A stretch of 64,000 nucleotides of DNA from Alphaproteobacteria bacterium (GTDB taxonomy: Bacteria > Pseudomonadota > Alphaproteobacteria > UBA828), in contig CBDFKL010000006.1 of assembly GCA_965248825.1 (NCBI GenBank), forward strand, positions 1,293,095 to 1,357,094, in the 5' to 3' direction. The position numbers were made by a program, and so were the translations under genes. Positions 4,598-44,217 of this stretch are shown piece after piece. The notes under the pieces are model-generated. The model was given only the letters and a program-made list of their open reading frames with translations, had not been told where the DNA came from and did no database searches. Within the stretch, counting starts at the first letter, position 1; every line of letters starts with the position of its first letter.

Positions 4598-4606
4598 AGA
4601 CCTGGA

Positions 4607-10694: not shown

Positions 10695-10709
10695 TCCGCC
10701 GGCGCGGCC

Positions 10710-11372: not shown

Positions 11373-11396
11373 GGCGTCGCTGCTCCGGGCGCAGGC

Positions 11397-16239: not shown

Positions 16240-16406
16240 CGTGCCTGCCGGGCCTCCACCGCCGTCCTCGGGCCGGTCTCCACTATAGCCAAGCATCCGT
16301 CGCGTTGAACGTCGGCGCGCCGACCTCGGTCGAGAGGTGTCGCAGGCTTGACCCCCGGCGATCGGGGGCGTAGCTGTAACGGACCGGGGCATGCGGGGCG
16401 AAGCGC

Positions 16407-18131
16407 ATGGTAGAGAGCGAAGCGCGAAGCGACACCCATCCTTGGGAAAAGTCCTATCCGGCAAACGTGGATTGGCACGCGTCGATCCCGACCGCGCCGC
16501 TCTACCGATTGCTCGACGATGCGGTCGCGCGCTATGGCGACCGTCCGGCCATCGATTTCATGGACCGGGTGACGAGCTATCGGGCGCTGGGTGAGCTGGT
16601 GAATCGAGCGGCCGAAGGGTTCCAGAAGCTCGGCGTCGGCAAGGGCCGCAGGGTCGGCCTCCTCCTGCCCAATTGCACGGCCTTCGTCGTGGCTTATTAC
16701 GGCGTGCTCAAGGCCGGCGGGACGGTCGTCAATTTCAACCCGCTCTACGCGATCGAAGAGATCAAGGCTCAGGTCGAGGATTCCGAGGCCGACATCCTGG
16801 TCACCCTCGATCTCGCGCTCCTCTACGACAAGGCGCGCGCCGCGCTCGAGCAGACGCGGCTCACCCACCTCGTGATCTGCCCCATGGCCGAGATGCTGCC
16901 GGGCCTCAAGAGCCTGCTCTTCCCGCTGGTCAAGCGCCGGGAGCTCGCCAAGGTGGCGCGCGATTCGCGTCATGTCTTCTTCAAGGCGTTGACCGCGAAT
17001 GCCGGCAACCCGGCGCCGGTCGACACCGACGTCGAGAACGACATCGCGGTGCTGCAATATACCGGCGGCACCACCGGCACCTCGAAAGGCGCGATGCTGA
17101 CCCACGCCAATCTCTACGCCAATACGGCGCAGTCGGTGATGATGTTTCCGGATCTCGAGACGGGCTCCGAGGTCATGGTCGGCGTGCTTCCGCTGTTTCA
17201 CGTCTTCGCCATGACCGTGGTGATGAACCTCAGCATCCATACCGGCACGAAGATGATCCTGCTGCCGCGCTTCGAGCTCGACTCCCTGCTCAAGGTGATC
17301 GACAAGAAGCGGCCGACCTTCTTCCCGGCGGTGCCGACGATCTACATCGCGATCAACGGCCATCCGGCGGTCGCGGCCAAGAAGCACGACCTCTCCTCGA
17401 TCAAGCTCTGCCTTTCGGGCGGCGCATCGCTCCCGCGCGAGGTTCAGGAGACATTCCAGACGCTCTCCGGCTGCACGCTGGTGGAGGGCTATGGCCTGAG
17501 CGAGACCGCCCCGGTCGCGACCTGCAACCCGACCACACCCGGCGGCAGCCGGGAGGGCTCCCTTGGTGTTCCGGTCCCGGGCACCGTTGTCGAGATCACC
17601 TCGGTCGACGCCCCGACCAACACGCTCCCGCAGGGCGAGACCGGAGAGATCTGCATTACCGGTCCCCAGGTCATGAAGGGCTACTGGAAGCGCGATGAGG
17701 AAAACGCGAAGACCTTGACCGGCGGCCGATTTCACACGGGCGACGTCGGCTATATCGACGAAGATGGCTATGTCTTCCTCATCGACCGGCTCAAGGAAAT
17801 CATCATCGCGGGCGGCTACAACATCTATCCGCGCCATGTCGAGGAAGCGATCTACAAGCACCCCGCAGTGCTCGAAGTGACCGTCATCGGCGTCGACGAC
17901 GCCCATCGCCAGCAGACCGCCAAGGCCTTCGTTCGGCTGAAAGAAGGCGAAAGCCTGACCGAAGAGGCGCTGACGGATTTCCTCAAGGACAAGCTCTCGC
18001 CGATCGAGATGCCGAAGCAGATCGAGTTTCGCGCCGAGCTGCCGAAGACGATCATCGGCAAGCTCTCCAAGAAGGAGCTGATCGCCGAAGAGGCCGCCAA
18101 ACGGAGCGAGAGCACCGGTGCATCGGCATGA
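16407..18131 (+). CDS. fadD: Long-chain-fatty-acid--CoA ligase (FadD-like)
   Basis: Contains YTGGTTGTSKGAMLTHANL and GYGLSETAP plus the C-terminal PKTIIGKLSKKEL lysine motif. It is divergent from the previous ligase. Confidence 0.85.
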   Translation: MVESEARSDTHPWEKSYPANVDWHASIPTAPLYRLLDDAVARYGDRPAIDFMDRVTSYRALGELVNRAAEGFQKLGVGKGRRVGLLLPNCTAFVVAYYGVLKAGGTVVNFNPLYAIEEIKAQVEDSEADILVTLDLALLYDKARAALEQTRLTHLVICPMAEMLPGLKSLLFPLVKRRELAKVARDSRHVFFKALTANAGNPAPVDTDVENDIAVLQYTGGTTGTSKGAMLTHANLYANTAQSVMMFPDLETGSEVMVGVLPLFHVFAMTVVMNLSIHTGTKMILLPRFELDSLLKVIDKKRPTFFPAVPTIYIAINGHPAVAAKKHDLSSIKLCLSGGASLPREVQETFQTLSGCTLVEGYGLSETAPVATCNPTTPGGSREGSLGVPVPGTVVEITSVDAPTNTLPQGETGEICITGPQVMKGYWKRDEENAKTLTGGRFHTGDVGYIDEDGYVFLIDRLKEIIIAGGYNIYPRHVEEAIYKHPAVLEVTVIGVDDAHRQQTAKAFVRLKEGESLTEEALTDFLKDKLSPIEMPKQIEFRAELPKTIIGKLSKKELIAEEAAKRSESTGASA

Positions 18132-18185
18132 TCGCGGCCTGACGCCGAGCGCCACGACACTCGACGAAACGCGAGGTCACCGCCG

Positions 18186-19322
18186 ATGAAACCTGCCGTC
18201 ATTGCTGGCTACGTCCGCTCGCCCTTTCACTTCGCCCACAAGGGCGCGCTGGTCGAGAAACGGCCGGACGATCTCGCGGCCGATGTCGTGCGCGGCCTGA
18301 TCGCCGAGACCGGTGTCGATCCGCAAGAGATCGAGGACTTGATCATCGGCTGCGCCTTTCCCGAGGGCGAGCAGGGATTCAACCTCGGCCGCATCGTCGC
18401 CATGGTCGCGGATCTGCCGGTCTCGGTTGCCGGTGCGACGATCAATCGTTTCTGCGGCTCTTCGATGCAGGCGATCCATATCGCGGCCGGCGCGATCCAA
18501 ATGGAGGCCGGCGAGGCATTCATCTGCGCCGGTGTCGAATCGATGAGCCGCGTACCCATGGGCGGCTTCAACCCGATGCCGAATCCGGACCTCTACGAGA
18601 AGAACGAGGGCGCCTACATGTCCATGGGCGAGACGGCCGAGAATCTCGCCAGAAAATATCAGATCACCCGGGAGGAGCAGGAGGCGCTGGCAGTCACGAG
18701 CCACAGCCGCGCCGCCGCCGCCTGGGAGGCCGGCAAGTTCGCCGGTGAGGTGATCGCCGTCGAGACCGGCACCGGCACGGTCGAGCGCGATGGCTGCATC
18801 CGCGCGGCCACCGACGCCGAGATCCTGGCCGGCCTCGAGCCCGCGTTCGATGCGGACGGCACCGTCACGGCCGGGACCTCCTCGCCGCTCACCGACGGTG
18901 CGGCGGCGGTGCTGGTCTGCACCGAGGATTTCGCCGCGCGCAACGGGCTCACCGTTCTTGCTCGGATCAAGGCCATCGCGGTGGCCGGCTGCCGGCCCGA
19001 GATCATGGGCTACGGCCCCGTGGTCTCCTCCGAAAAGGCGCTCGGACGGGCCGGGATCAAGATGGCCGACATCGACGTGATCGAGCTCAATGAAGCCTTC
19101 GCGGTGCAGGCGCTCGCCTGCGTGCGTGAGCTCTCGATCGACCTCGAGCGTATGAATCTCGACGGCGGCGCGATCGCCATCGGCCATCCGCTCGGCGCGA
19201 CCGGCGCGCGCATCACCGGCAAGGCCGCGCAACTCCTCAGGCGCGAGGACAAGCGCTACGCGCTCGCCACCCAATGTATCGGCGGCGGGCAGGGCATCTC
19301 GACCGTCCTCGAGGCCGCTTGA
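18186..19322 (+). CDS. fadA: Acetyl-CoA C-acyltransferase (3-ketoacyl-CoA thiolase)
   Basis: Contains the thiolase active-site Cys region NRFCGSSMQA and the C-terminal NLDGGAIAIGHPLGATGAR and CIGGGQG motifs. Confidence 0.9.
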   Translation: MKPAVIAGYVRSPFHFAHKGALVEKRPDDLAADVVRGLIAETGVDPQEIEDLIIGCAFPEGEQGFNLGRIVAMVADLPVSVAGATINRFCGSSMQAIHIAAGAIQMEAGEAFICAGVESMSRVPMGGFNPMPNPDLYEKNEGAYMSMGETAENLARKYQITREEQEALAVTSHSRAAAAWEAGKFAGEVIAVETGTGTVERDGCIRAATDAEILAGLEPAFDADGTVTAGTSSPLTDGAAAVLVCTEDFAARNGLTVLARIKAIAVAGCRPEIMGYGPVVSSEKALGRAGIKMADIDVIELNEAFAVQALACVRELSIDLERMNLDGGAIAIGHPLGATGARITGKAAQLLRREDKRYALATQCIGGGQGISTVLEAA

Positions 19323-21649
19323 TGACAATCGAAAAGGCCGCCGTCATCGGGGCGGGCCTGATGGGCGGCGGCATCGCCGCCCACATTGCCAATGCCGGCC
19401 ACGACGTCGTGTTGCTCGACATCGTGCCCGAGGGTGTCAGGAACCGGAATGCACTGGCCGAGGGTGCGGTCGAGAAGATGCTCAAGACCGAGCCCGCGCC
19501 ATTCATGGATAAGGCGGACGCGAAGCGGATCAAGACCGGCAATTTGGAGGACCATCTCGGCCTCTTGGAGGACGCGGACTGGATCGTCGAGGCGGTGATC
19601 GAGAAGGCCGACATCAAGCAGGCGGTCTATCGCCGGATCGATTCGGTGCGCAAGGCGGGCTCGATCGTCTCGTCCAACACCTCGACGATCCCGAGCCATG
19701 TGCTGTGTCGCGGCATGCCGGAGGCCTTCGTCCGTGATTTCCTGATCACGCATTTCTTCAATCCGCCGCGCTACATGCGGCTCTTGGAAGTGGTGTCGGG
19801 CCCAGCTACCCGGCCGGATGCGGCCGCGGCCGTGTGCGATTTCGCCGACCGCAAGCTCGGCAAGGGCGTCGTCGCGTGCAAGGACACGCCGGGTTTCATC
19901 GCAAACCGCATCGGGACCTATTGGATCATCGCCGCGGTCAAGGAAGCCCTCGACGGTGCGGTCACCATCGAGGAGGCGGATGCCGTGCTGTCCCGCCCGA
20001 TCGGCGTGCCGAAGACCGGCGTCTTCGGGCTGATCGATCTGGTCGGCCTCGACTTGATGCCGCTGGTCGGGCGCAGTCTTTATGAAGCGCTGCCCGAGGG
20101 CGACGCCTTCCGCGCGATCTACAACGAGCCCGCGATCATCGCCTCGATGATCGCGGACGGCTATGTCGGCCGCAAAGGCAAGGGCGGCTTCTATCGGTTG
20201 AAACCGGGATCCGAAAAGAGAGAGAAGGAGGCGCTCGACCTCTCATCGGGCGACTATCGGCTGGCCGAGCGCCCGAAACTGGAGAGCATCTCGCAAGCCG
20301 AAGGCTCGCTCCGGCGGCTCTTCGAGTTTCCGGACGAGACCGGGGCCTATGCATGGCGCGTGATGTCCGGGACGCTGGCCTACGCGGCCGCGTTGGTGCC
20401 CGAGATCGCCGACGAGGTCGACGCGGTCGATCGCGCCATCCGGCTCGGCTACAACTGGAAAGCGGGCCCTTTCGAGCTGATCGACAAGCTCGGCGCGGGC
20501 TGGTTCGCCGAGAAGCTCTCCGGCGAGGGCCGTCCGCTACCGCCGCTGCTCGAAAAGGCCGCCGAGCGCGACGGTTTCTACCGGCTCGCGGACGGCCGCT
20601 ACGAGCAGCTCACTGGCGGGGGCGCCTACGCCTCGATCGAGCGGCCGGCCGGCGTGCTGCTGCTCTCCGACGTCAAGCGCGGGCAGGAGCCGCTCGCACG
20701 CAACGGCTCGGCGAGCCTCTGGGACCTCGGCGACGGGGTCGCTTGCCTCGAGTTCCACACCAAGATGAACGCGCTCGACGCCGAGATCATGGCGCTGATC
20801 GGCCGGTCGATCGAGATCGTCGGCACGGACATGAAGGCGCTCGTGATCTACAACGAGGGCAGCAACTTCTCCGTCGGGATGAATCTCGGCCTCGCGCTCT
20901 TCGTCGTCAATATCGGCGCTTGGCAGATGGTCGAGGACACGGTGAAGCAGGGCCAGGAGGCCTTCAAGGCGCTCAAGTTCGCGCCCTTTCCGGTGGTCGG
21001 CGCGCCGTCCGGCATGGCGCTCGGCGGCGGCTGCGAGGTCTTGCTGCACTGCGACGCCGTCCAAGCGCACGCCGAGAGCTATATCGGCCTGGTCGAGGCC
21101 GGCGTCGGGATCGTGCCCGGTTGGGGCGGCTGCAAGGAGTTGATGCTGCGCGGTCTGAGCGACGGTAAGCGGGGTTTCGGCGGCGCGATGCCGGCGATCT
21201 CCAAGGCGTTCGAGACGATCGGCCTCGCCAAGGTCTCACGCTCGGCGAAACAGGCGCGGCGCCTCGGTTTCCTGCGAGAGGGCGATACCATCACCGCCAA
21301 CCGCGACCGTCTGCTGGCCGACGCCAAGGCGAAGGCGCTGGCGCTTGTCGAGAATTACACGGCGCCCGAGCCCCGGACCGTCAAGCTCCCCGGCAAGACC
21401 GCCCGCGTCGCGCTCAAGATGGCCGTGAGGGGGCTCGCGAAGACGCGCAAGGCCACGCCGCACGATCTGGTCGTGGTCGAGCATCTCGGCACTATTCTGA
21501 CCGGCGGCGACACCGATGCGACCAGGGAGGTTTCAGAGGATCGGCTATCCGCGCTTGAGCGCGATGCGCTGCTCGCCTTGATCCGCACCCCGGAAACCAT
21601 CGCCCGCATGGAGCACATGCTGGAGACCGGCAAGCCGCTCCGGAATTAG
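19322..21649 (+). CDS. Bifunctional 3-hydroxyacyl-CoA dehydrogenase (N-terminal) / enoyl-CoA hydratase (C-terminal) beta-oxidation protein
   Basis: The start MTIEKAAVIGAGLMGGGIA (NAD Rossmann of the 3HCDH domain) overlaps the thiolase stop by 1 nt. The C-terminal half has a crotonase fold (…FSVGMNLG…, …GMALGGGCEV…). Confidence 0.85.
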   Translation: MTIEKAAVIGAGLMGGGIAAHIANAGHDVVLLDIVPEGVRNRNALAEGAVEKMLKTEPAPFMDKADAKRIKTGNLEDHLGLLEDADWIVEAVIEKADIKQAVYRRIDSVRKAGSIVSSNTSTIPSHVLCRGMPEAFVRDFLITHFFNPPRYMRLLEVVSGPATRPDAAAAVCDFADRKLGKGVVACKDTPGFIANRIGTYWIIAAVKEALDGAVTIEEADAVLSRPIGVPKTGVFGLIDLVGLDLMPLVGRSLYEALPEGDAFRAIYNEPAIIASMIADGYVGRKGKGGFYRLKPGSEKREKEALDLSSGDYRLAERPKLESISQAEGSLRRLFEFPDETGAYAWRVMSGTLAYAAALVPEIADEVDAVDRAIRLGYNWKAGPFELIDKLGAGWFAEKLSGEGRPLPPLLEKAAERDGFYRLADGRYEQLTGGGAYASIERPAGVLLLSDVKRGQEPLARNGSASLWDLGDGVACLEFHTKMNALDAEIMALIGRSIEIVGTDMKALVIYNEGSNFSVGMNLGLALFVVNIGAWQMVEDTVKQGQEAFKALKFAPFPVVGAPSGMALGGGCEVLLHCDAVQAHAESYIGLVEAGVGIVPGWGGCKELMLRGLSDGKRGFGGAMPAISKAFETIGLAKVSRSAKQARRLGFLREGDTITANRDRLLADAKAKALALVENYTAPEPRTVKLPGKTARVALKMAVRGLAKTRKATPHDLVVVEHLGTILTGGDTDATREVSEDRLSALERDALLALIRTPETIARMEHMLETGKPLRN

Positions 21650-21679
21650 TCCAACGACGGCGGGCGCGGGAGTGATCGC

Positions 21680-22516
21680 ATGAGCGGTGTGGCCTGGAAC
21701 ATCGGGGTGGTTCAGATGGACTGCGCCGCCGGCGAAACGGAGCGGAACCTCGCGACGATTGCGCAGTTCGCGCGGATGGCGGCTGCCCGCGAAGCCGATC
21801 TGGTCGTCTTCCCGGAATGCGCCACCACCGGCTACTTCCTCGGCAGCCGGCTCGAGGATCTTGCCGAGCCGCCGGACGGGCCGACCGCCCGGCGGCTCGG
21901 CGAGATCGCCCGAGAGAATGCGCTCACCATGGCTGTCGGCGCCTACACGCGAAAGGACGGCGGCATCTACGATTCGCAGTTCCTGTTCGGCCCCGACGGG
22001 CGCTGCCTCGCGGTCTACGACAAGGCTCACCTGTTCGCGAGCGAGCGCGAAAGCTGCCGCCCCGGCGATCGGCCATGCGTGGTCGAGACCGCGCTCGGCA
22101 AGATCGGCATGACGATCTGCTACGACTTCATCTTTCCCGATTACGTGCGCCATCTGGTCGATCTCGGTGCCGACCTGATCGTCAACAGCACCGACTGGAT
22201 CAGCGATGCCTATCAACGGGAGACCTGGGGTTGGACCGGGACGGTGACCCAGAGCCTCGCCGCGACCCGCGCCCTCGAAAATCTTACCTTCGTCGCGATG
22301 GCAAACCGGGTCGGCAGCGAGGACGCGGCCCCCGGCCTCTCCTTCACCAGTCTGGGCCATTCCTGCGTTGCCGGCCCTTCCGGCAAGATCCTCACCTCGA
22401 TTCCGGAGGGTGAGGGGCTCGCGATTGCGCGCATCGACCTCGCGCGGGAGGATCTCGATCGTTGGCGTGCCATCGCAACATACCGCGAGGATCGCCGCCC
22501 CGAGTTGATGACATGA
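21680..22516 (+). CDS. Carbon-nitrogen hydrolase (nitrilase/amidase superfamily)
   Basis: Contains the catalytic triad context …[11 protein letters not shown]… (Glu), …YDKAHLF… (Lys) and …GMTICYD… (Cys). Confidence 0.8.
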
Positions 22517-23574
22517 GTGTTGCGAGCGCCGCCGCGCTGCCCGCGCGCATCGCTGACGAGGCGGCGCTCGAGGATCTGATGACCACGCCGGGCGCGGCGC
22601 TCCGCGCCGCCCTCGCCCGGGTGGCGGGCGACATCGTCGTGCTCGGCGTCGGCGGCAAGATGGGGCCGACCCTGGCCGGCCTCGCCAAGCGTGCGGCTCC
22701 CGACAAGCGTGTCGTCGGCGTCGCCCGCTTCTCGGATCCCACCGTCCGCGAGAAGCTCGCCGCCTGGGATGTCGAGCCGATCGAATGCGATCTCCTGGAT
22801 CGGGACGCCGTGGCCGACCTGCCGAGGCTGCCCAACGTCGTCTTCATGGCAGGCCGCAAGTTCGGTGCGGTCGGCGACGACGACCTGACCTGGGCGATGA
22901 ACGCTCATGTGCCCGCGATCGTCGCCGAGACCTTTCGTGACTCCAGGATCGTCGCCTTCTCGACCGGCTGCGTGTACCCGTTCGTCGACATTCGCCATCA
23001 GGGCGCGACTGAAGAGACGCCGCCGACCCCGCCGCCCGGCGAATACGCCAATTCCTGCGTCGGGCGTGAGCGGTTGATCCAGTATTTCTCGCGCCGTTTC
23101 GACAATCCAGGTCGTCTGGTTCGGCTGAACTACGCGATCGATATGCGCTACGGCGTGCTTCATGACGTGGCCTGCAAGGTCCGCGACGGCACGCCAATCG
23201 ACCTCACCACCGGCCATGTCAACGTCATCTGGCAGGGAGACGCCAACGCCATGGCGCTGCGCTGCCTTGAGCACTGCACCGTGCCGGCCTCGCCCATCAA
23301 TGTGAGTGGTCCTGAAACCGTGAGCGTCCGCGCCCTGGCTCAAGCTTTCGGCCAGCGGCTGGGGAAGGAGCCCGCCTTCCTCGGCGAGGAAGCGCCGAGC
23401 GGATGGCTGGTCAATACGCGGCGCGCCTGCGCCCTCTTCGGCTATCCGAGCGTTCCGCTGGGGCTGATGATCGACTGGGTCGCGGACTGGGTGGCGCGCG
23501 ACATGCCGGGCCTCGCCAAGCCCACCCAGTACGAGGTGCGGGACGGTGTGTTCTCCGCGCCGGTGGCGCCATGA
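22513..23574 (+). CDS. NAD-dependent epimerase/dehydratase family protein
   Basis: The start MSVASAAAL overlaps the previous stop by 4 nt. Contains the Rossmann VLGVGGKMG motif and an extended-SDR fold. The ORF N-terminal extension was rejected. Confidence 0.7.
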
Positions 23575-24632
23575 ACCTCGTCTGGCGCGAGGTGCCGGCG
23601 CCGGTACGGGCGGCACTCGCCCGCGGCGTCGTGATTCCGGCGCATCCGTTGGCCCTCGATGCCGGGCGCCGGCTCGACGAGCGGCGCCAGCGCGCGCTCA
23701 CCCGCTACTACCTCGATGCGGGCGCCAGCGGCCTCGCGGTCGGCGTGCACACGACCCAGTTCGCCATCCGCGAGGCCGGCCTCTACGAGCCGGTGCTCAG
23801 GCTCGCCGCCGAGACCGCCGAGACTTGGACCGAACGGCCGCTGGTGCGGATCGCCGGCCTCGTCGGGCGGACAGAGCAGGCTCTCGCCGAGGCCGATATC
23901 GCCCTCGGCCTCGGCTATCACGCCGGGCTGGTGAGCCTCGCCGCCTTCGCAGGCGCGAGCGAGGACGAGCGAATCGCCCATTGCGCGCGGCTCGCCGAGC
24001 GGATTCCTCTGGTCGGCTTCTATCTACAGCCTGCGGTGGGCGGGGTCGTGCTCGGGCCCTCCTTCTGGCGCCGGTTCGCCGCTCTCGACAATGTGGCGGC
24101 GATCAAGATCGCGCCGTTCAACCGCTACCGCACCCTCGATGTCGTCCGCGGCATCGTCGAAGCCGGTGCGGAAGACCGCATCACCCTCTATACCGGGAAT
24201 GACGACCATATTCTCCTGGACCTGGTCACGCCCTATCGCCTGGTACGCGATGGCGTCGGCGTTACGGTGCGCATAAAGGGCGGGCTGCTGGGGCATTGGA
24301 GCGTCTGGGTCAAGCGCGCCGTGGAATTGCTCGACCATGTCCACGCGGCGGTCGAGGGGGGTGCTGTGGACTCCGGTTTTCTGGCGCTGGATGCCCAGAT
24401 CACCGATTGCAACGCCGCGCTCTTCGACGCAAGGAACGACTTTCGGGGCTGCATTGCCGGCTGTCACGAGGTGCTCCGCCGCCAGCGCCTCCTCCGGGGG
24501 ACTTGGTGCCTCGATCCGGAGGAAGGGCTGAGCCCCGGCCAAGCCGCCGAGATCGACCGCGTCTGCGCCGCCTACCCGGCGCTCACCGACGACGACTATG
24601 TCCGCGCCAATCTCGCGCGCTGGCTTGCCTGA
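23571..24632 (+). CDS. Dihydrodipicolinate synthase (DapA/NAL) family class I aldolase-like protein
   Basis: The start [12 protein letters not shown] overlaps the previous stop (ATGA). DapA-family (beta/alpha)8 signatures are present (…[13 protein letters not shown]…, …LYTGNDD…, K in …AAIKIAPF…). Confidence 0.7.
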
Positions 24633-24648
24633 GGCCGTCGCCCCCGCA
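24496..24648. repeat. Direct repeat copy 1 (about 150 bp): authentic 3' end of the dapA-family gene
   Basis: About 90% identical to 26019..26170. It encodes …[44 protein letters not shown]. Confidence 0.8.
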
Positions 24649-24878
24649 GAACTCCGCCACAAGCGGTCTGAACGGTTCCAAGGACAATTTCATGCTGCGT
24701 CGGACAGGCGCGCGGCTCACTGTGCTTCGCGCGGCACGGCGGTGCCGCGCTGACCGACCAGGAAATCGAGGTCGACGCCGCGGTCGGCCCGATCGATCCG
24801 CACCCCGGGAATCATTTCCGTCCGGTGCCCGCCATTGGCCCCGGCCAGGCGCGGATGACGGGATCCTCGCCGCTAACG

Positions 24879-25217
24879 CTAACTACCGAGAGAGGCGAGG
24901 GCCTCCGTCCGGGAGCCGTGGATCGGGATGATCTTGTCGAAACCGCTGATCTGAAAGACCTCCGTGACTGAATCGGAAAGCGAGCAAAGCGCAATTTCAA
25001 TGTCTCGTTTCCCGAGAGCCTTGGCGATCAGCAGGATGGCGCGGAGGCCTGCGCTGCTGATGTAGGAGAGGTTTTCGCAGTCGATGATCACGGCGCCTTC
25101 GCGTTCGCCGATTGCGGCGTGCATCGCTTTTTCGAAGTCACGCGCGTTGGTGCCGTCTATGCGGCCGTCCGCCTTGGCAATCAGCGTTCCGTTTTCGCTT
25201 TCGATGCTTATTTCCAT
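24879..25217 (-). CDS. STAS-domain protein (anti-sigma-factor antagonist SpoIIAA-like)
   Basis: The start MEISIESENGTLIAKADGRIDGTNARDFEKAM… resembles SpoIIAA/RsbV (alternating beta/alpha, conserved …ENLSYISSAGLRAIL… with the phosphorylatable Ser context). About 112 aa. Confidence 0.65.
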   Translation of the reverse strand: MEISIESENGTLIAKADGRIDGTNARDFEKAMHAAIGEREGAVIIDCENLSYISSAGLRAILLIAKALGKRDIEIALCSLSDSVTEVFQISGFDKIIPIHGSRTEALASLGS

Positions 25218-25275
25218 CGCTCCTGCTTTCCCGCGTCGTGAAATACCGTCCGAGTTCTCGAGTGAGAGATCAGTG

Positions 25276-25887
25276 TCAGTGCACCGGCGCCATTGCGAAG
25301 GCAAGAGAGGCTTTGATGTCCCGGACCGCCTTCGCGACCTCCCGGCCGATCAAGTCCATCTTGCGGATCTGTTCGATGCGTGGAGCCGTACCCTTCAACT
25401 CTCGATTGGAAAGCAGACTCCCGAAAATACCGCATACGTCCGCAAGGGAGATGATGACGATGTCGCGCGCATCCGGAATATCATCGCCGAACAGCACCCC
25501 CATGATCCGCAGCTTCACCTCGCGAATGGTCCGGTCGTCGACGATCGGATAGCGTCGCGTCTGGAACACCCACAGGAAACGGTCGTCCTCCCGGCGCAGA
25601 ATGCCGCGCTCGACGAGACGGGCGAGGGAGCGTTCGCGGATTTCACCGGCCCGCGGAATCGTTTGCTCGATCCAATAGCGGGCGCCGCGCGTCTCCGTCG
25701 ATTGCACGATATGAGCAAGCGTCGGGTCGAGCAGATCGTCCTCGACCGGTGCCGGATCGATCACGAAGAGCCGTTCCGGATCGGTATCGATCCGGAACTC
25801 CAGGGCCAAATCCATCAGAACCGCGCCCGCAAGAGCGTATTCGAGCGATAGCGCGGGAACGTCTGCGAACTTCCCGCCCTTAGTCAT
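25276..25887 (-). CDS. GOLPH3/VPS74 (GPP34)-like protein
   Basis: 203-aa protein containing LSLEYALAGAVLMDLALEFRI, which resembles the GPP34 signature (LxxALxGAxLxELALxGRI). It is immediately upstream of and co-directional with the STAS gene. The assignment is from memory of the family motif. Confidence 0.45.
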   Translation of the reverse strand: MTKGGKFADVPALSLEYALAGAVLMDLALEFRIDTDPERLFVIDPAPVEDDLLDPTLAHIVQSTETRGARYWIEQTIPRAGEIRERSLARLVERGILRREDDRFLWVFQTRRYPIVDDRTIREVKLRIMGVLFGDDIPDARDIVIISLADVCGIFGSLLSNRELKGTAPRIEQIRKMDLIGREVAKAVRDIKASLAFAMAPVH

Positions 25888-26018
25888 CGAGTAGAAGCAG
25901 CATGATCTCTTCGGAAAATCTCAGCACGGATACGTTTCCCGGCCCGAAGGAACGAAGATCATCGCATACGACCGGAGGCAGTTCCATCGCTTCCGGCTCC
26001 GACGCCGAGGACTCCTCC

Positions 26019-26170
26019 GGGGGAATTGGTGCCTCGACCCGGAGGAAGGGCTGAGCCCCGGCCACGCCGCCGAGATCGACCGCGTCTGCGCCGCCTACCT
26101 GGCACTCACCGACGACGACTATGTCCGCGCCGATCTCGCGCGCCGGCCCGCCTGAGGCCGCCGCCCCGCG
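26019..26170. repeat. Direct repeat copy 2 (about 150 bp): diverged, displaced duplicate of the dapA-family 3' end
   Basis: In the same frame it encodes [44 protein letters not shown] with a TGA at the equivalent position. It differs from copy 1 by both synonymous and nonsynonymous changes. Confidence 0.8.
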
Positions 26171-26275
26171 CCCCGCCATTGCCGCGCGGCTCTTGCTGCC
26201 CTACGCTAACCCGTTCCGGCGGCCGTGCGCTCCGAGGATCGCCGCGGCCGTTCAGCGCTGACGGGGAGACGCAGC

Positions 26276-27673
26276 ATGTCGCTCGACCATACCCAGAACA
26301 TCTCGCTCGAGGAGCTCGACAAGCAGGTCCTGCTTCATCCGGTCACGTCGATCGCCGAGCATCAGGATGTCGGACCTGTCGTTTACCAGAAAAGCGGCGG
26401 GGTGAAGGTCTATGACCGGCACGGCAAGGGCTATATCGACGGTGCTGCGGCGCTGTGGTGCGTCAATGTCGGCTATGGCCGAACCAAGCTCGCCGACGTG
26501 GCGGCCGAGGAGATGGCGCGGATCGGCTTCTACCACACCTTCGGCGCCGCTTCGAACGAGCCGCAGATCCGCCTTGCCGAGAAGCTCCTCAATTTGCTTC
26601 ACGAGCACGCCGATTGCCATCATCTCGGCAAGGTGTTCTTCGGGTTGTCGGGCTCGGACGCGAACGACACCCAGTTCAAGCTCGTCCGTTATTACAACAA
26701 TCTCCGCGGCCGGCCGAAGAAGAAGAAGATCATCTCACGGATCGGCGCCTATCATGGCGTGACCGGCGCGGCGGGGAGCCTCACGGGCATTCCGCTTTAC
26801 CACAAGGCGTTCGATCTGCCCTTCGAGGGCGTGCTGCATACGGCATGCCCGCACTATTGGCGCGACGGGAAGGAAGGCGAGAGCGAGGAGCAGTTCGCGC
26901 AGCGCATGGCCGACGAGCTGGAGGCCCTGATCGAGAAGGAAGGCGCGGAGACGATCGCCGCCTTCATCGCCGAACCGGTCATGGGCACCGGCGGCGTGCT
27001 GATTCCAGGCGGCGGCTATTACGACAAGGTGCAGGCGCTTCTCAGGAAGCACGATATCCTGTTCATCGCCGACGAAGTGATCTGCGGCTTCGGGCGCCTG
27101 GGCACCTGGTTCGGTGCCAGCTATTTCGGCCTCAAGCCCGACTTGATGACCTTTGCCAAGGGGCTCACCAGCGCCTATTTCCCGATGTCGGCGGTCGCGA
27201 TCTCGGACGAAATCTGGCAGGTGCTGGCCGATGGCTCGGCCGAGGTCGGCATGTTCGCCCACGGCTTCACCTATTCGGGGCACCCGGTCGGTGGTGCGGT
27301 CGGCGTCGCCAATCTCGAGATCATGGAGGCCGAGGACTTGATCGGGAATGCCGCCGCGGTCGGTCCCTATTTCAAGCAGTCTCTGATCGAGCGCGTGGGC
27401 GACCACCCCAATGTCGGCGACATCCGTGGCGTCGGTCTCATACTCGGGGTCGAATATGTCGGCGACCGCGCGAGCAAGAGCGCGCCGGATATGAACCCGC
27501 CGGCACACAAGCGGGTCTCGGTCGCGGCCCAGGAGCGCGGCCTTCTGACCCGGGCGCTGCCCTTCCTGCCGGTCAACGCCTTCTCGCCGCCGCTGACCTT
27601 CTCGCGGGCAAATGTCGACGAGACGGTCGGGATCTTCGGCGATGCGGTCGAAAGCGTCTTCGGCAAGGGCTAG
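26276..27673 (+). CDS. Class III (omega-) aminotransferase, PLP-dependent
   Basis: The start is MSLDHTQNISLEELDKQVLLHP. Class III signatures are present (…GSDANDTQFK…, …DEVICGFGRLGTWFG…, Schiff-base Lys in …FAKGLTSAYFP…). Confidence 0.85.
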   Translation: MSLDHTQNISLEELDKQVLLHPVTSIAEHQDVGPVVYQKSGGVKVYDRHGKGYIDGAAALWCVNVGYGRTKLADVAAEEMARIGFYHTFGAASNEPQIRLAEKLLNLLHEHADCHHLGKVFFGLSGSDANDTQFKLVRYYNNLRGRPKKKKIISRIGAYHGVTGAAGSLTGIPLYHKAFDLPFEGVLHTACPHYWRDGKEGESEEQFAQRMADELEALIEKEGAETIAAFIAEPVMGTGGVLIPGGGYYDKVQALLRKHDILFIADEVICGFGRLGTWFGASYFGLKPDLMTFAKGLTSAYFPMSAVAISDEIWQVLADGSAEVGMFAHGFTYSGHPVGGAVGVANLEIMEAEDLIGNAAAVGPYFKQSLIERVGDHPNVGDIRGVGLILGVEYVGDRASKSAPDMNPPAHKRVSVAAQERGLLTRALPFLPVNAFSPPLTFSRANVDETVGIFGDAVESVFGKG

Positions 27674-27698
27674 CCGCCGCCCATAGAGAGCCCACGCC

Positions 27699-29774
27699 GT
27701 GGGGCTTCGTATTTCCGTCGATACCGGCGGCACCTTTACCGATGTGGTCGCGGCGACCGGCGAGCGGGAGGTCATCGGCAAGGCGCCGACCACACCCGAT
27801 CGCATCTTCGTCGGGATGCGGAACGCGCTTCAAAACGCGGCCGAGCAACTCGACTGCGACCTCGCGGCGCTGCTCGGTGATACCGACCTTCTGATCTACG
27901 GCACCACGCGCGCCACCAACGCGATCGTCCAAGGCGCCGTCGCTAAGACGGCGTTCCTGGTCACCGCCGGATTCCCCGATATTCTGGTGCTGAAGGAAGG
28001 CGGCAAGCCGCGGGTTCACGATTTCTCGACCGACTATCCGGACCCCTACATCCCGCAGGCCCATACCTTCGAGATCGCCGAGCGGATCGATTCCGAGGGC
28101 GGCGTGGTGGAGCCGCTCGACCGTGAGCAGGCGCGCGCGGTGCTGGAGCGAATCAAGGAGCGCGGCTTCGAGGCGATCGCCGTCTGCCTGCTGTGGGCGG
28201 TGGCGAACCCCGACCATGAGCGTGCGCTCGCCGCGCTGATCGAGGAGGTGCTGCCCGGCGTGCCTCACACGCTCTCGCACCGGCTGATCCCGATCGTGCG
28301 CGAGTATCGGCGCGCATCGGCGACCGCCATCGACGCCTCGCTCAAGCCTCTCATGCAGGCGCATCTGCGCGACATGGAGGGTGATCTGCGCGCCGCCGGC
28401 TGCCGCGGCGAAATTCTGGTGAGCACCACGGTCGGCGGGTGCATGCATGTCGAGGAACTGGCGGAACGGCCCATCCACACGGTCAAGTCCGGTCCGGCCA
28501 TGGCGCCGGTCGCGGCGCTCGCCTATTCGCGGATGGAGGATTTCGGCGACGACGTGATCGTCTGCGATGCCGGCGGCACCACCTTCGATGTCAGCCTGGT
28601 GCGCGACGGCGCGGTCAAGCATACGCGCGAGACCTGGATCGGCGGCCAGTGGGTCGGCCACATCCTCGCGATCTCCTCGGTCGACGTCCGCAGCATCGGC
28701 GCCGGCGGCGGCTCGATCGCCTGGATCGATCCGGGCGGGCTGCTGCGGGTCGGCCCGAAGAGCGCCGGGGCGGTGCCGGGGCCCGCCTGCTACGGCACCG
28801 GCGGCGCCGAGCCGACGGTAACCGACGCGGCGCTGCTCCTCGGCTATCTCGACCCGGATTATTTTCTCGGTGGGCGCATGGCGCTCGACGTCGATGCGGC
28901 GCGGCGCGCCGTCGGCGGGCTGAGCCGCGCCCTCGGCAAGACTCTCGACGACGGCGCGCACGCGGTCATGAGCCTCGCCAACGAGCTGATGATCAAGGCG
29001 ATTCAGGACATTACGGTCACCGAGGGCTTCAACCCGCGGGAGTGCACCCTGGTCGCCGGCGGCGGCGCGGCGGGCCTCGGCATCATGTCGATCGCCGGCG
29101 AGCTCGGCTGCGAGCGGGTCGTCCTGCCGCGCACCGCGAGCGTGCTCAGCGCCTGCGGCATGCAGGTCTCGGACGTGATCTACGAGCACTCGGCGAGCAT
29201 CGTCACGCGCTCGGTCGATTTCGCTTTCGACGCGGTCAACGGCGTGCTCGAGGCGATCGATACGGAACTGGAGCGCTTCGCCGCGACGCTCGAGAACCGC
29301 GGACTCCAGACGATGCGCATCGATCGCTTCGTGGAGGCGCGCTATCTGTTCCAGGTCTGGGAGCTCGACGTGGCGCTCCCGGTCGAGCGCTTTCGGAGCG
29401 AGCGGGACGTTGCCGATCTGGTCGAGCGGTTCCACGCGACTCACGAGCAGGTCTTCGCCGTGCACGACCCTGACAGCTTGCTCGAATGCCTCAATTGGAA
29501 GGGGCGGCTTTCGGTCGGCCTCGGCGGCGCGCCCGCGCGCAAGGCGGGCGCGCCGCCGAGCGCGGGTCCGGGCACGCCGGATCGGCAGCGCGAAGCCTAT
29601 TTCGGCGGCGGCGCGCGGGTCGAGACCCCGATCTATCTCGGTCAGAACCTCCGCCCCGGCGCCGCGATCGAGGGTCCCGCGATCATCGAGGAGCCGACCA
29701 CCACGATCGTGGTCAATCCCGGGACCCGGGCGCGCTTGAGCGGCACCGACAATTTCATCCTGGAGGCCTGTTGA
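27699..29774 (+). CDS. hyuA: Hydantoinase/oxoprolinase family subunit A (HyuA-like, ATP-dependent)
   Basis: The N-terminus ISVDTGGTFTDVV (ASKHA ATPase motif) and a second ATPase-fold repeat (…VCDAGGTTFDVSLV…) are present. 691 aa, typical of the family. Confidence 0.9.
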   Translation: MGLRISVDTGGTFTDVVAATGEREVIGKAPTTPDRIFVGMRNALQNAAEQLDCDLAALLGDTDLLIYGTTRATNAIVQGAVAKTAFLVTAGFPDILVLKEGGKPRVHDFSTDYPDPYIPQAHTFEIAERIDSEGGVVEPLDREQARAVLERIKERGFEAIAVCLLWAVANPDHERALAALIEEVLPGVPHTLSHRLIPIVREYRRASATAIDASLKPLMQAHLRDMEGDLRAAGCRGEILVSTTVGGCMHVEELAERPIHTVKSGPAMAPVAALAYSRMEDFGDDVIVCDAGGTTFDVSLVRDGAVKHTRETWIGGQWVGHILAISSVDVRSIGAGGGSIAWIDPGGLLRVGPKSAGAVPGPACYGTGGAEPTVTDAALLLGYLDPDYFLGGRMALDVDAARRAVGGLSRALGKTLDDGAHAVMSLANELMIKAIQDITVTEGFNPRECTLVAGGGAAGLGIMSIAGELGCERVVLPRTASVLSACGMQVSDVIYEHSASIVTRSVDFAFDAVNGVLEAIDTELERFAATLENRGLQTMRIDRFVEARYLFQVWELDVALPVERFRSERDVADLVERFHATHEQVFAVHDPDSLLECLNWKGRLSVGLGGAPARKAGAPPSAGPGTPDRQREAYFGGGARVETPIYLGQNLRPGAAIEGPAIIEEPTTTIVVNPGTRARLSGTDNFILEAC

Positions 29775-29775
29775 G

Positions 29776-31554
29776 ATGGCGACGACGGAAACTCTCGATC
29801 CGGTCCTGTTATCGGTGCTTTCCAACCGGCTCGACGGCATCGTGCGCGAGATGTCGAACACGCTGCTCAAGGCGGCGCGCTCGGCCGTGATCGCCGTGGC
29901 GCGCGATTTCTCCTGCGCGATCTGCACGGGCGACAACCGGCTCCTCGCGACCGCCGAGGGGCTGCCGGTCCATATCTTCGGCTCCCACCTGCAGACCCGG
30001 GCGATGTGCGAGCTCCATGACGATATCGCCGAGGGCGACGCCTTTCTCCACAACGACCCCTATCTCGGCAACACCCATCCGGCCGATCACGCCGTGCTGG
30101 TGCCGGTGTTCATCGAGGGCGAGCATCTGTTCACGGCCTGCGCCAAGGGCCATCAGGCGGATATCGGCAACAGCATCCCGACCACCTATCACGCCGCGGC
30201 GAAGGACGTGTACGAGGAAGGCTCGCTGATCTTCCCCTGCGTCCGGGTGCAGCGCGATTACGCGATGGTCGATGACGTGATCCGCATGTGCCGCCGTCGG
30301 ATCAGGGTCCCGGAGCAGTGGTATGGCGACTTTCTGGCCGCGCTCGGGGCGGCGCGGATCGCCGAGCGGCGTCTCAAGGAGCTGTGCGGGAAATACGGCA
30401 AGGAGACCATCAAGACCTTCATCCGCGAGTGGTTCGACTATTCGGAGCGCCGCATGGTGCAGGCGATCAAGGAGCTGCCGGAGGCGGATGTTACCGCCGA
30501 GGGTGCTCACGATCCGTTTGAGCCCTTTCTGCCCGACGGCATCCCGATCAAGGTCGAGGTCCAGATCGATCCCGGCGAAGGCATGGTCACGATCGATCTT
30601 CGCGACAATATCGATTGCGTCGACTGCGGCCTCAATGAATCGGAGGCCTGTGCGATCAACAATGTCGTCGCCGGCCTGTTCAACTGCCTCGGGCCGGAGA
30701 TTCCGCATAATGGCGGCTCGTTTCGGCGGATCGCGGTGCTGCTCCGCGACGGCTGCGTCGTGGGCCGCCCGTCGTTCCCGCATTCCACGTCGATGGCGAC
30801 GACCAACGTCGCGGACCGCCTGGTCAACATCACGCATTCGGCGATGGCGAAGCTCGGCGACGGCTATGGTCTGGCGGAGGGCGGCAGCGCCATGGGCGCC
30901 GGCGGCGCGGTCCTGAGCGGCAAGGATTTCCGCCGCGGCGGAAATCCCTACATCAACCAGCTCATGATGCTGGTCAATGGCGGCCCCGCCGGGCCGGAGG
31001 CCGACGGGTGGGTGACCTATGTGCTGCCGGTGGTCTCCGGCCTCATGTACCGCGACAGCGTCGAGCTCGCCGAGGTCAAGCACCCGATGCTGTTCAAGAC
31101 GGTGCGCCTGTTGCCCGGCACCGGCGGCGCGGGGCGCCACCGCGGCGGGCCGGCCTGCGAGGTGATCTACGGGCCGCGCGAGGACCCGATGACGGTGGTC
31201 ATCCCCTCCGATTGCCAGATCAACCCCGCGCGGGGCGCGCAGGGCGGCCGGGACGGCGCGCCGGCCGTGCAATTCAAGGTCGGCGCCAATGGTGGCGAGA
31301 CCAGGCTGCCCAACGTCGTCCAGTTGGATCTGATGCCGTGCGAGCTGATCCGCGGCCACGACGCTGGCGGGGGCGGCTACGGCGATCCCCGCCAGCGCGA
31401 CCCCGAACGGGTGCGGATGGACGTCGCCCGCGGCTGGGAGACGACTGAGCGTGCGCGCGAGATCTACGGCGTCGTGCTCACCGGCGCCCGCGAGACCGAC
31501 ACCCTCGCGGTCGATCGGAAGGCGACCGAGGCTGCGCGGGTAACATCTCGCTAG
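29776..31554 (+). CDS. hyuB: Hydantoinase/oxoprolinase family subunit B (HyuB-like)
   Basis: It starts 2 nt after the hyuA stop. The size (592 aa) and motifs are typical of the HyuB family (…[11 protein letters not shown]…, …GGGGYGDP…). Confidence 0.9.
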
Positions 31555-31660
31555 CGACGTGGGTCGGCCGACGCATCGGCCGAGAGCCTGATACGCACGG
31601 TCGGCTCTCAGGCTCCAGGTGAGTCGCGCGGCAGCGTGACGAGAGTGAGAAGAGCAAGCC

Positions 31661-33271
31661 ATGGCACGAGGGCGAAAGAAGAAACCGAAATCCGATGCCG
31701 GAATGACGCAAGGCGCCCACGGCGCTACGACCGGCCATGAGGCCGAGCTGTGGCGCATGGCCGACGCTCTGCGCGGCTCGATGGATGCAGCCGAATACAA
31801 GCACGTCGTCCTCGGGCTGATCTTCCTGAAATACATCTCCGACGCCTTCGAGGAGCGCCACGCGGCCGTTCTCGCCGAATGGGGTGCGGACGCCGCCGAA
31901 GACTGCGACGAGTACCGCGCCGAGAACATCTTCTGGGTGCCGCCCGAGGCCCGCTGGACGCATCTCAAGGCTCAGGCAAAGCAGCCCATCATCGGCCAGC
32001 TCGTCGACGACGCGATGGCCGGCATCGAGCGCGACAATCCGGCGCTCACGGACGTGCTGCCCAAGGATTACGCCCGCCCCGCGCTCGACAAGCAGCGGCT
32101 CGGCCAGCTCATCGACATGATCAGCAACATCAAGGTGGGCGACGAGGAAGCGCGCTCCAAGGACGTGCTCGGCCGCGTCTACGAATATCTCTTGTCGCAG
32201 TTCGCGAGCGCCGAGGGCAAGAAGGGCGGCGAGTTCTACACCCCGCGTTGCGTCGTCAAGCTCCTGGTCGAGATGCTGGAGCCCTTTCAGGGCCGGGTCT
32301 ACGACCCCTGCTGCGGCTCCTCCGGCATGTTCGTGCAGTCGGTCGAGTTCATCCAGGCGCACGCCACCGGCAACGGCAATGGCGGAAGGGTTCCCAGGGG
32401 CGCCAAGGCCGATATCTCGATCTACGGCCAGGAGTCGAACTACACGACCTGGCGGCTCGCGAAGATGAACCTTGCCATCCGCGGCATCGAGGGCCAGATC
32501 GCCCACGGCGACAGCTTCCACAACGACCGCCACCCTGACCTCAAGGCCGACTTCGTCCTCGCCAATCCGCCGTTCAACGTCTCCGACTGGGGCGGCGAGC
32601 GGCTCGCCGAAGACAAGCGCTGGCAGTACGGTACCCCGCCCAAGGGCAATGCCAACTTCGCCTGGGTGCAGCACATCGTCCACCACATGTCGCCGGCCGG
32701 CGCGGCCGGATTCGTGCTCGCCAACGGCTCAATGTCGTCGAACCAGTCGGGCGAAGGCGAGATCCGGAAGAGCCTGATCGAGGCGGACCTAGTGGACTGC
32801 ATGGTCGCCCTTCCCGGCCAGCTCTTCTATTCCACCCAGATCCCCGCCTGCCTGTGGTTCCTCACCCGCGACCGGCGCGACGGCACGTTCCGAAACCGCC
32901 GTGGCGAGGTACTCTTCCTGGACACCCGCAAGCTCGGCCGCATGGTCGACCGCACTCACCGCGAATTGACCGATGAGGACATCGCCCGCATCGCCGGCAC
33001 CTATCACGCGTGGCGCGGCGAGGAAGGCGCGGGCGAGTACGCCGACATTCCCGGTTTCTGCAAGAGCGCGCCGCTCGACGAGGTACGCAAGCACGGCCAC
33101 GTGCTCACACCCGGCCGCTATGTCGGCGCGGAGGCGCAGGAGGACGACCGCGAGCCGTTCGAGGAGAAGATGAAGCGGCTCGTTGCGCAGTTGAGGGAGC
33201 AGCAGGCCGAGAGCGTAAACCTCGACGCCACCATCGCTGCCAATCTCAAGGAGCTGGGGTATGGCGGCTGA
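31661..33271 (+). CDS. hsdM: Type I restriction-modification system DNA methyltransferase subunit HsdM
   Basis: Contains the N6-adenine MTase catalytic motif NPPF (…[12 protein letters not shown]…), the SAM motif …[12 protein letters not shown]…, and the N-terminal HsdM_N domain (…[32 protein letters not shown]…). Confidence 0.9.

Positions 33272-35190: not shown

Positions 35191-35194
<4 letters not shown>
34484..35194 (+). CDS. Abortive-infection-like (Abi_C-type) protein embedded in the Type I R-M operon (tentative)
   Basis: 236-aa protein translationally coupled on both sides (overlaps the hsdS stop by 13 nt, and the hsdR start overlaps its stop by 4 nt). The central segment …[23 protein letters not shown]… resembles the conserved E-S-x-x-K/R core of Abi_C-domain proteins, which are commonly found between hsdS and hsdR. 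The family call is from memory, not a search. Confidence 0.45.
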
Positions 35195-38331
<3,137 letters not shown>

Positions 38332-44195: not shown

Positions 44196-44217
44196 GCGCG
44201 CATGGGATGGGGCGCGG

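Follow-up and report, generated by a model that had tools for sequence, protein, structure and literature searches.

Non-canonical partner-switching systems that depend on STAS-only proteins have been described for targets that are either not sigma factors or not known; these include PA3346/PA3347 (HsbR/HsbA) from Pseudomonas aeruginosa, which act on FlgM, SypE/SypA from Vibrio fischeri, BtrU/V/W from Bordetella, and RbaV/W/Y from Rhodobacter capsulatus (PMC8256260). Separately, bacterial proteins of the GPP34 family (PF05719), to which GOLPH3 and Vps74 are related, were described as widespread and enriched in sponge symbionts, with both short forms (GPP34_S) and GPP34-P450 fusions (Ferreira et al., Microbiome 2025, PMC11706023). 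In two actinobacterial clades, the same study located P450 genes in the vicinity of GPP34_S. It proposed that the protein binds phosphatidylinositol 4-phosphate (PI4P) of the host, and it makes no mention of STAS proteins or of partner switching. A cell-wall phenotype has also been linked to the GOLPH3-like protein SCO4440 from Streptomyces coelicolor. Here, we analyze a locus in which a STAS gene and a GPP34 gene stand side by side. It lies in a stretch of 64,000 nucleotides (nt) from an alphaproteobacterium of the GTDB lineage UBA828 (assembly GCA_965248825.1, contig CBDFKL010000006.1, positions 1,293,095 to 1,357,094), which is referred to below as the window and whose numbering is used unless a contig of another genome is named. 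On balance, we lean towards the view that this pair serves a partner-switching pathway as a mobile output module, which was inserted at the 3' end of a DHDPS-family gene and is decaying in this genome.

The STAS gene (24879-25217, minus strand) encodes a STAS-only protein of 112 residues of the RsbV/SpoIIAA type, with its start placed by alignment with its orthologues. The protein matches PF01740 (E 9e-21) and TIGR00377 (E 2e-22; 79.4 bits against a cut-off of 53.45 bits), both above threshold, and the description of it in the initial annotation as anti-sigma-antagonist-like is therefore sound. It carries the motif YISSAGLR, in which Y-I-S-S-A, the leucine and the arginine are invariant among eight aligned orthologues (the glycine is replaced by serine in L016), and the Y-I-S-S serines are kept in all 25 of the STAS orthologues recovered in the census described below. 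This motif would hold the phosphorylatable serine, with the particular serine assigned by analogy with SpoIIAA, RsbV and SypA.

The neighboring gene (25276-25927, minus strand) begins with GTG and encodes a 216-residue protein in relatives. The 203-residue protein read from the window matches PF05719 (E 4e-40; 138 bits against a cut-off of 29.1 bits), and a profile of its subfamily finds Vps74 (2ZII/2ZIH/4TU3; E 1e-11 to 2e-11) and GOLPH3 (3KN1; E 2e-10) in the PDB. An AlphaFold2 model of P0001, which is 94% identical to the window protein, has a predicted TM-score of 0.75 and a mean predicted local distance difference test (pLDDT) score of 75, and includes a predicted beta-hairpin. In a Foldseek search of the PDB, this model matched GOLPH3 (9qpq_B) at E 9e-6 with a probability of 1.00 and a template-modeling (TM) score of 0.61, and no other structure fell below E 0.4. 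The initial annotation had proposed a GOLPH3/VPS74-like protein and had named absence of the fold as the result that would speak against it; Pfam, profile and structure searches alike found the fold.

While the family assignment thus stands, the length of 203 residues does not, since this open reading frame (ORF) is only the downstream part of a frameshifted 216-residue gene. Relative to the closely related contig L001 and to all homologues, the window has one extra T at position 25882 (GATGAC-T-AAGGGC), which is not a homopolymer run. The first 15 codons, counted from the GTG at 25927, consequently end in TAA, and the 203-residue frame restarts at an overlapping ATG (25887), whereas the homologues are 216 residues long and start with MLRF[AS]EEIMLLLLDDKGGKF. 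The segment cut off in this way is the first helix of the fold and contains eight invariant residues; instead of a signal peptide, the N-terminus (MLRFSEEIMLLLLDD) consists of a conserved, acidic helix that belongs to the fold. The gene is intact in L001, and in L006 it has two different indels, although this assembly has a depth of only 3x. Programmed frameshifting at 25882 was considered and rejected, as there is no slippery sequence and the gene of L001 is plainly in frame. Between the window and L001, the ratio of non-synonymous to synonymous change (pN/pS) is 0.23 for the STAS gene and 0.31 for the GPP34 gene, within the range of 0.13-0.52 for neighboring genes (all from small counts), and the pair therefore seems to have been under purifying selection until recently.

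The two genes are bracketed by a direct repeat of 172 nt (24473-24644 and 25996-26167, plus strand, hereafter copies A and B), with 91% identity and a spacing of 1523 nt. The repeated sequence comprises the last ~160 nt of the DHDPS-family gene (23571-24632, plus strand), its stop codon and ~12 nt beyond. That gene encodes 353 residues, is 100% identical in protein sequence to P0121, which is encoded on a 4.06-Mb contig, and matches PF00701 at E 1e-5, barely over the cut-off. A diverged duplication of this 3' end had been claimed from the outset, and the alignment confirms it, with a start ~23 nt further 5' than first given; the second copy also keeps the frame, ends in a TGA at the corresponding position, and gives the translation reported for it. 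The repeat is longer in L001 and L006, two conspecific contigs, where it extends ~30 nt further past the stop codon, to ~33 nt in copy A and a total of ~188-190 nt (188 nt at 91.5% identity in L006); in this added stretch, the copy B of the window has a small deletion. No third copy and no tandem island array was found across the 64-kb window.

Roughly six of the eight coding differences between the copies are amino-acid changes, and where outgroup orthologues are informative, the derived states (Asn to Asp, Trp to Arg, Leu to Pro, and Gln to His) sit in copy B, with copy A retaining the residues of the outgroup orthologues. Because the derived and mostly non-synonymous changes are those of copy B, copy A can be recognized as the working end of the DHDPS-family gene and copy B as an unconstrained relic. 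As judged from these substitutions, copy B is a displaced, non-functional remnant of the gene end which is decaying beside the native region upstream of a class-III aminotransferase gene.

The conditions in related genomes tie this duplication to the insertion. L001 is collinear with window positions 15276-33278 (97.3% nucleotide identity over 18 kb) and bears the pair together with both repeat copies, as does L006. Conversely, five relatives (L007, L008, L009, L011 and L012), whose DHDPS-family orthologues are 79-87% identical, have neither STAS nor GPP34 at this position and only a single copy of the gene tail. The proposal that the duplication is associated with the insertion is thereby upheld: all three contigs with the pair hold two copies, and all five without it hold one.

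The DHDPS-family gene is the last gene of an upstream block that is conserved in L001, L006, L007, L008, L011 and L012. Its three-gene core, consisting of the CN-hydrolase, epimerase and DHDPS-like genes, is kept in all five pair-less relatives, and acyl-CoA ligase, thiolase and 3HCDH/ECH genes also lie upstream in the four relatives at 84-87%. Downstream of the stop codon, by contrast, every relative examined differs. L008 has a HigB-like toxin and a helix-turn-helix (HTH) antitoxin gene, followed by the aminotransferase gene and then petABC; L011 has creatinase/M24, GT4 glycosyltransferase and acyl-CoA ligase genes; L012 encodes YDMC and SGL proteins; and a convergent DUF4139 gene follows in L009. 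L008 and the window are syntenic up to the stop codon (24636) and again from 26176, right after copy B, in a stretch that includes the aminotransferase gene (26276-27673, plus strand; PF00202, E 2e-85), which has 84.7% nucleotide identity to L008 7874-9379. Given this interruption and resumption, and the variety of genes found downstream, the end of the DHDPS-family gene is a recurrent breakpoint, with the aminotransferase gene belonging to the native right flank outside the cassette. The idea that the cassette interrupts a continuous catabolic operon running from the DapA-family gene through the aminotransferase to hyuAB is therefore abandoned, as the conserved block ends at the DHDPS-family gene, the aminotransferase is common to only one relative, and hyuAB to none.

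The inserted DNA itself contains only the STAS gene, the GPP34 gene and a 234-nt spacer between copy A and the STAS stop codon (24645-24878; GC 0.68). Its overall GC content of 0.609 compares with a window mean of 0.663 (standard deviation 0.029) and lies in the lowest 3% of windows of the same size; the GC content at third codon positions (GC3) is 0.735 for the STAS gene and 0.735-0.745 across the insert genes, against 0.83-0.88 in the flanking genes. The segment is thus AT-richer, as had been noted, by a moderate margin, and a foreign origin is supported both by this composition and by the 80-83% nucleotide identity of the GPP34 gene to copies in other phyla, with such matches in Binatia, Trueperaceae and other Alphaproteobacteria. 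Conservation with the GPP34 loci of other phyla also covers ~30-40 nt adjoining the start codon, in the leader and region upstream of the GPP34 gene (25928-25995, minus strand), and blastn matches extend to window positions 25955-25965 in L002-L005, L013, L015, L039 and L095. None of the fetched loci matches the spacer at the nucleotide level or in translation, and it matches no Rfam family; a small hairpin (24865-24900) overlaps the STAS stop codon. Scans of the insert for promoters, terminators and Rfam families returned nothing above chance, and no tRNA gene was found in the window. Viral contigs yielded no relatives, and plasmids yielded only distant ones, at 27-35% identity.

The closest precedent is the element e14 in Escherichia coli: icd runs on into the element, and the pseudogene icdC, a C-terminal fragment, remains at the other end (PMC13626634). 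By analogy, the architecture at the DHDPS-family gene is that left by elements which insert themselves at the 3' end of protein-coding genes and supply or rebuild a replacement end. Island remnants that lack an integrase and are flanked by attachment (att) repeats are also represented by the CIME-type elements of streptococcal integrative and conjugative elements.

In order to place the pair in a wider context, 80 species-representative loci of this GPP34 subfamily were surveyed, these being the best-scoring of at least 577 and coming mostly from sponge-associated metagenome-assembled genomes (MAGs). Hidden Markov models (HMMs) built from the proteins of the window and of L005 were used to search for STAS, kinase and phosphatase genes within 10 kb on either side of GPP34. 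The subfamily retains 60-79% protein identity across Alphaproteobacteria, Gammaproteobacteria, Chloroflexota, Spirochaetia, Binatia, Entotheonella/Tectimicrobiota and Trueperaceae, and most members belong to MAGs with record names that point to sponge microbiomes (Spongia_Bin9, SB0661, CAR2, COS2, RHO1-3). A close STAS orthologue (155-196 bits) is present in 25 of the 80 loci, and in 24 of these 25 it lies less than 500 nt from GPP34, where random placement in the ±10-kb flanks would bring only ~5% of STAS matches that close, as estimated from interval lengths. Adjacency was found in 22 of 38 alphaproteobacterial loci, in the single locus from Trueperaceae, in one of seven from Spirochaetia and in none of 22 from Chloroflexota. 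Over 29 loci in which both genes were recovered, STAS lies downstream on the same strand in 15, upstream on the same strand in 11 (once at a distance of 4.2 kb), upstream on the opposite strand in two, and downstream on the opposite strand in one. Pairwise divergences of the two proteins are correlated (Mantel r 0.82, not reached in any of 2000 permutations). Together, these comparisons indicate at the sequence level that the pairing is not a local accident.

It is nonetheless possible to explain such a pattern without any functional coupling, if the two genes were simply co-transferred on one successful mobile fragment and the duplication arose by illegitimate recombination rather than by integration of an element. 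Most adjacent pairs do come from related Alphaproteobacteria of similar habitats, simple physical linkage also predicts strong co-divergence, and no recombinase was found in the insert or in the scanned ORFs. Yet adjacency persists through four arrangements with spacers of 9 to 449 nt, and outside the two coding regions and the short GPP34 leader the loci share no nucleotide homology, so that no single conserved fragment has been copied. Furthermore, the pairing recurs on unrelated contigs at a GPP34 identity of only 38-43%, and GPP34 genes that lack a STAS neighbor are found directly beside PP2C-kinase fusion proteins. We therefore regard mere co-transfer as unlikely.

Several other features were seen at GPP34 loci. 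Flanking repeats occur at 14 of the 80 loci, but they are of mixed kinds (insertion sequence (IS) copies, inverted repeats and direct repeats) with no common mechanism. In L018, the GPP34-STAS pair lies between inverted repeats of 133 nt (80% identity; 9760-9892 and 11199-11330), of which a third copy is present at 14248-14370, and in L023, direct repeats of 277 nt (79% identity; 8772-9048 and 10684-10960) bracket GPP34; both may be further insertion scars of other kinds. An identical GPP34 protein, P0010, is encoded at three places (8001-8651 in each of L002, L003 and L004) without STAS, with a small GIY-YIG-like ORF in front, flanking IS21 istA/istB genes, and IS110 and DDE transposases, a serine recombinase and UvrD-like helicases nearby; apparently, this is a form of the gene that is associated with IS elements and exists in several copies. 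Homology clustering of the ORFs near GPP34 returned mostly lineage-specific synteny, with a largest cluster of 15 loci. Apparent GPP34-STAS fusions in L045, L052, L058 and L087 were rejected, since these long ORFs are stop-free, out-of-frame stretches of high-GC DNA.

The link to partner switching comes from the remaining neighbors of the pair. Genes for RsbW-like kinases (HATPase_c_2) or SpoIIE phosphatases, or both, lie within 10 kb of GPP34 in ten of the 80 loci, with RsbW-like genes in nine and SpoIIE/PP2C genes in nine. Such genes stand beside orthologous pairs in L005/L013, L016, L022, L023, L032, L049, L050 and L162. HAMP-SpoIIE proteins with separate kinases are encoded in L022, L023 and L049 (confirmed with Pfam), and in L005 a response-regulator-SpoIIE protein adjoins a HATPase_c_2 kinase (precomputed Pfam calls). 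In MAGs of Spirochaetia, proteins with the domain order dCache-HAMP-SpoIIE(PP2C)-HATPase_c_2 are encoded directly upstream of GPP34 (L050 7465-9981 and L054 7325-9973, checked with Pfam), and a protein at L055 7419-9935 looks like the same fusion, as matched by our HMMs only. In L054, GPP34 is followed by a Na+/H+ exchanger with a CBS domain. On the metagenome contig L162, HATPase_c_2 (3526-3975), STAS (4001-4300) and GPP34 (4309-4959) genes form a co-directional run in which STAS and GPP34 are 9 nt apart.

A reciprocal scan, in which an alignment of the STAS clade was searched against JGI metagenomes, returned 80 loci at 35-71% identity. An RsbW-like kinase gene adjoins STAS in 58 of these and a PP2C gene in 18, and the STAS protein is accordingly a genuine RsbV-type protein. 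No sigma factor gene occurs among the called genes of L001 and L005, the 80 GPP34 loci not having been searched systematically for one.

These observations suggest the following course of events. Not long before this species-level lineage began to diversify, a foreign segment of ~1.35 kb, with GPP34 followed by STAS on the minus strand, entered the DHDPS-family gene at its 3' end. Integration left two copies of the last ~190 nt, of which copy A completes the working gene and copy B lies beside the native downstream DNA; as the insert has no recombinase, it may be a remnant, or a passenger mobilized in trans. In the proposed pathway, an RsbW-type HATPase_c_2 kinase would phosphorylate the STAS serine, and a sensor PP2C phosphatase of the SpoIIE family would remove the phosphate. 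Genes for both enzymes adjoin the pair in some genomes, whereas this genome has them at another place or lacks them. GPP34 would be bound by STAS, or by the kinase, in one of the phosphorylation states, and its availability would be controlled in this way, with GPP34 presumably serving as a cytoplasmic adaptor and not as a reader of PI4P. Direct contact between STAS and GPP34 is favored because STAS adjacency (24 loci) is commoner than kinase proximity (nine loci); contact between the kinase and GPP34 is kept as an alternative because the Spirochaetia loci combine a PP2C-kinase fusion with GPP34 and have no STAS orthologue.

A number of results weigh against this scheme. Regarding the insertion, the inserted segment contains no integrase or recombinase and has no terminal inverted repeats, and no empty site, in which the DHDPS-family gene is followed directly by the aminotransferase gene, occurs among the contigs examined, where the slots hold other genes. 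Regarding the pathway, 56 of the 80 GPP34 loci have no adjacent STAS gene, including all 22 from Chloroflexota, which indicates that GPP34 can work without STAS, and in the wider STAS clade GPP34 stands beside STAS in only three of 80 loci, two of these GPP34 proteins being 38% and 43% identical. The 80 GPP34 loci, as best-scoring members from mostly sponge-associated MAGs, are also not independent samples. Finally, the 64-kb window has no kinase or phosphatase gene, and its GPP34 gene is frameshifted, so the pair may do nothing here; with the first helix of GPP34 removed and no kinase or phosphatase within 64 kb, the module is probably inactive in this genome.

A broader proposal can be put forward more tentatively, and we regard it as possible. 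Bacterial GPP34 proteins could form an unrecognized class of partner-switching output, in which an RsbV-type STAS protein, or its RsbW-type kinase, would bind GPP34 according to the state of phosphorylation and so couple membrane-sensor PP2C signaling to the activity of GPP34, with the STAS-GPP34 pair acting as a recombinase-less plug-in which passes between phyla, lands at the 3' ends of genes and taps the resident kinase and phosphatase. By analogy with SCO4440, the output might plausibly be the positioning of envelope or membrane proteins.

Given the prevalence of sponge-associated MAGs, it might instead be supposed that GPP34 is a eukaryote-like effector directed against the sponge host, which binds PI4P to disturb phagosome maturation, as Ferreira et al. 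have proposed, and that STAS regulates its expression or export or is incidental. The concentration of the subfamily in MAGs with sponge-microbiome record names and its spread across phyla by transfer are in keeping with this, as are the reported enrichment of GPP34 in sponge symbionts (PMC11706023) and the precedent of the STAS protein BtrV, which controls type III secretion in Bordetella (PMC8256260). The PI4P pocket, though, speaks against the proposal. It is formed by W81, R90, R171 and R174 in GOLPH3 and by W88, R97, K178 and R181 in Vps74, and the function of the latter was probed with the paired alanine substitutions W88A/R97A and K178A/R181A (PMC2806290). In an alignment of the subfamily profile with Vps74, whose numbering was validated by W88, R97 and K178 falling on Trp, Arg and Lys, W88 is replaced by an invariant proline and R97 by an invariant alanine, K178 corresponds to a variable position (glycine in the window), and R181 to a mostly conserved arginine. 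The PI4P pocket is thus not conserved in this subfamily, with two of its four residues invariantly replaced and a third variable. Moreover, the N-terminus is a helix of the fold and not a signal peptide, no secretion genes recur near GPP34 in the loci examined, and GPP34-STAS pairs with distant GPP34 proteins are also present on other JGI metagenome contigs. A host-directed role is thus considered quite improbable for this subfamily.

It is very improbable that the pair is a selfish addiction or defense module of the toxin-antitoxin kind lodged in a hotspot for such cassettes: the HigB-like and HTH_3 genes of L008 (7365-7840) do fill exactly the slot of the STAS-GPP34 pair, without a flanking repeat there, P0010-type GPP34 copies do lie among transposases, a serine recombinase and helicases, and a type I restriction-modification (R-M) system with an Abi_C gene does lie 6 kb downstream, but neither family has a known toxic activity, no PADLOC model matches P0001, P0018 or the window STAS at E 0.01, the pN/pS values relative to L001 are ordinary, the recurrent neighbors are signaling proteins and not nucleases or other effectors, and a frameshift in one partner is tolerated here.

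Further features of the region were noted in passing. The R-M operon (31661-38331) consists of hsdM, hsdS and hsdR, with the Abi_C (abortive infection C-terminus) gene between hsdS and hsdR, and the hsdS and Abi_C genes (33261-35194) form the stretch of lowest GC content in the window (GC 0.53-0.56, GC3 0.56-0.59), which suggests an exchanged specificity or defense segment. A second break in synteny follows the aminotransferase gene at ~27682, where hyuA/hyuB and the R-M system come next in the window and in L001, but petABC and formate-tetrahydrofolate ligase in L008, the relative at 86% (9380-13062 of that contig). The 107-kb contig L007 ends 154 nt past the DHDPS-family stop codon (7063-7216), consistent with an assembly break at a variable junction. 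A scan of ORFs at 31-62 kb revealed no recombinase, and the sole mobility-like gene in the scanned ORFs is a transposase-like one with HTH_28/HTH_23/HTH_29 matches (47783-48958, minus strand), 22 kb from the insert. The ORFs at 43915-45009 (plus strand, 364 residues) and 45006-46316 (minus strand, 436 residues) have no Pfam match.

The pairing of STAS with GPP34 had been called undescribed, and in the searchable literature this is so: no paper was found that joins GPP34 or PF05719 with partner switching in a search of full texts, although most subscription journals lie outside its coverage and novelty is therefore unproven. With this proviso, a mobile STAS-GPP34 pair that occurs in partner-switching contexts and has a non-conserved PI4P pocket appears to be undescribed. 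The accompanying statement that bacterial GPP34 homologues have no established function is true in that proposals are still speculative, but it needs qualification in view of the description of the sponge-symbiont family in 2025 and of the cell-wall phenotype of SCO4440. What the present comparison adds is a large, horizontally mobile GPP34 subfamily that genomic context places in partner-switching signaling, beside genes for STAS proteins, RsbW-type kinases and PP2C phosphatases, and hence a first testable regulatory context for bacterial GOLPH3-like proteins. Host PI4P binding is the only mechanism proposed in print, and for this subfamily, at least, the non-conserved pocket argues against it. 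If the assignment is true, GPP34 would represent a new kind of non-sigma output for partner switching, whose targets are mostly obscure outside Firmicutes.

As regards the insertion, the locus offers a compact, integrase-less example of the e14/icd type of architecture at a recombination-prone gene end. It shares with e14 the use of the 3' end of a protein gene as the target, an intact working end, and a diverged C-terminal fragment on the far side, next to the native flank. It differs in that the insert is only 1.35 kb long and has no integrase, excisionase or phage genes, in that the repeat is 91% identical with no recognizable identical core, and in that neither an excised form nor an empty site was observed.

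Compared with GOLPH3 and Vps74, the subfamily has the same fold (a TM score of 0.61 with 9qpq_B, and profile E-values of 1e-11 to 2e-10 for 2ZIH and 3KN1) and the predicted beta-hairpin, whereas identity is only ~20%, the protein is shorter, the equivalents of W81 and R90 are Pro and Ala, and bacteria lack a Golgi or PI4P context. An intracellular role related to the cell envelope is possible for a bacterial GPP34 protein, as the case of SCO4440 shows, but the partner of SCO4440 is a D-Ala-D-Ala carboxypeptidase rather than a STAS protein. The short GPP34_S forms of sponge symbionts are similar in consisting of a single PF05719 domain of ~216 residues, found mostly in sponge-associated MAGs of many phyla; the published link, however, is to cytochrome P450, while the neighbors here encode STAS, RsbW and PP2C proteins and the PI4P pocket is not conserved.

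The closest functional parallels are the non-canonical systems PA3346/PA3347, SypE/SypA, BtrUVW and RbaVWY, which likewise employ a STAS protein of one domain, in which a phosphorylatable serine is conserved, together with a cognate HATPase_c_2 serine kinase and a PP2C phosphatase. The kinase and PP2C domains are sometimes fused in one sensor protein (L050 and L054), as they are in PA3346 and SypE, and no sigma factor gene was noted among the neighbors examined at GPP34 loci. Unlike these systems, the window carries the pair without a kinase or phosphatase, STAS and GPP34 travel as a separate two-gene unit, and the candidate output is a protein of the GPP34/GOLPH3 fold, which has been reported for none of the others.

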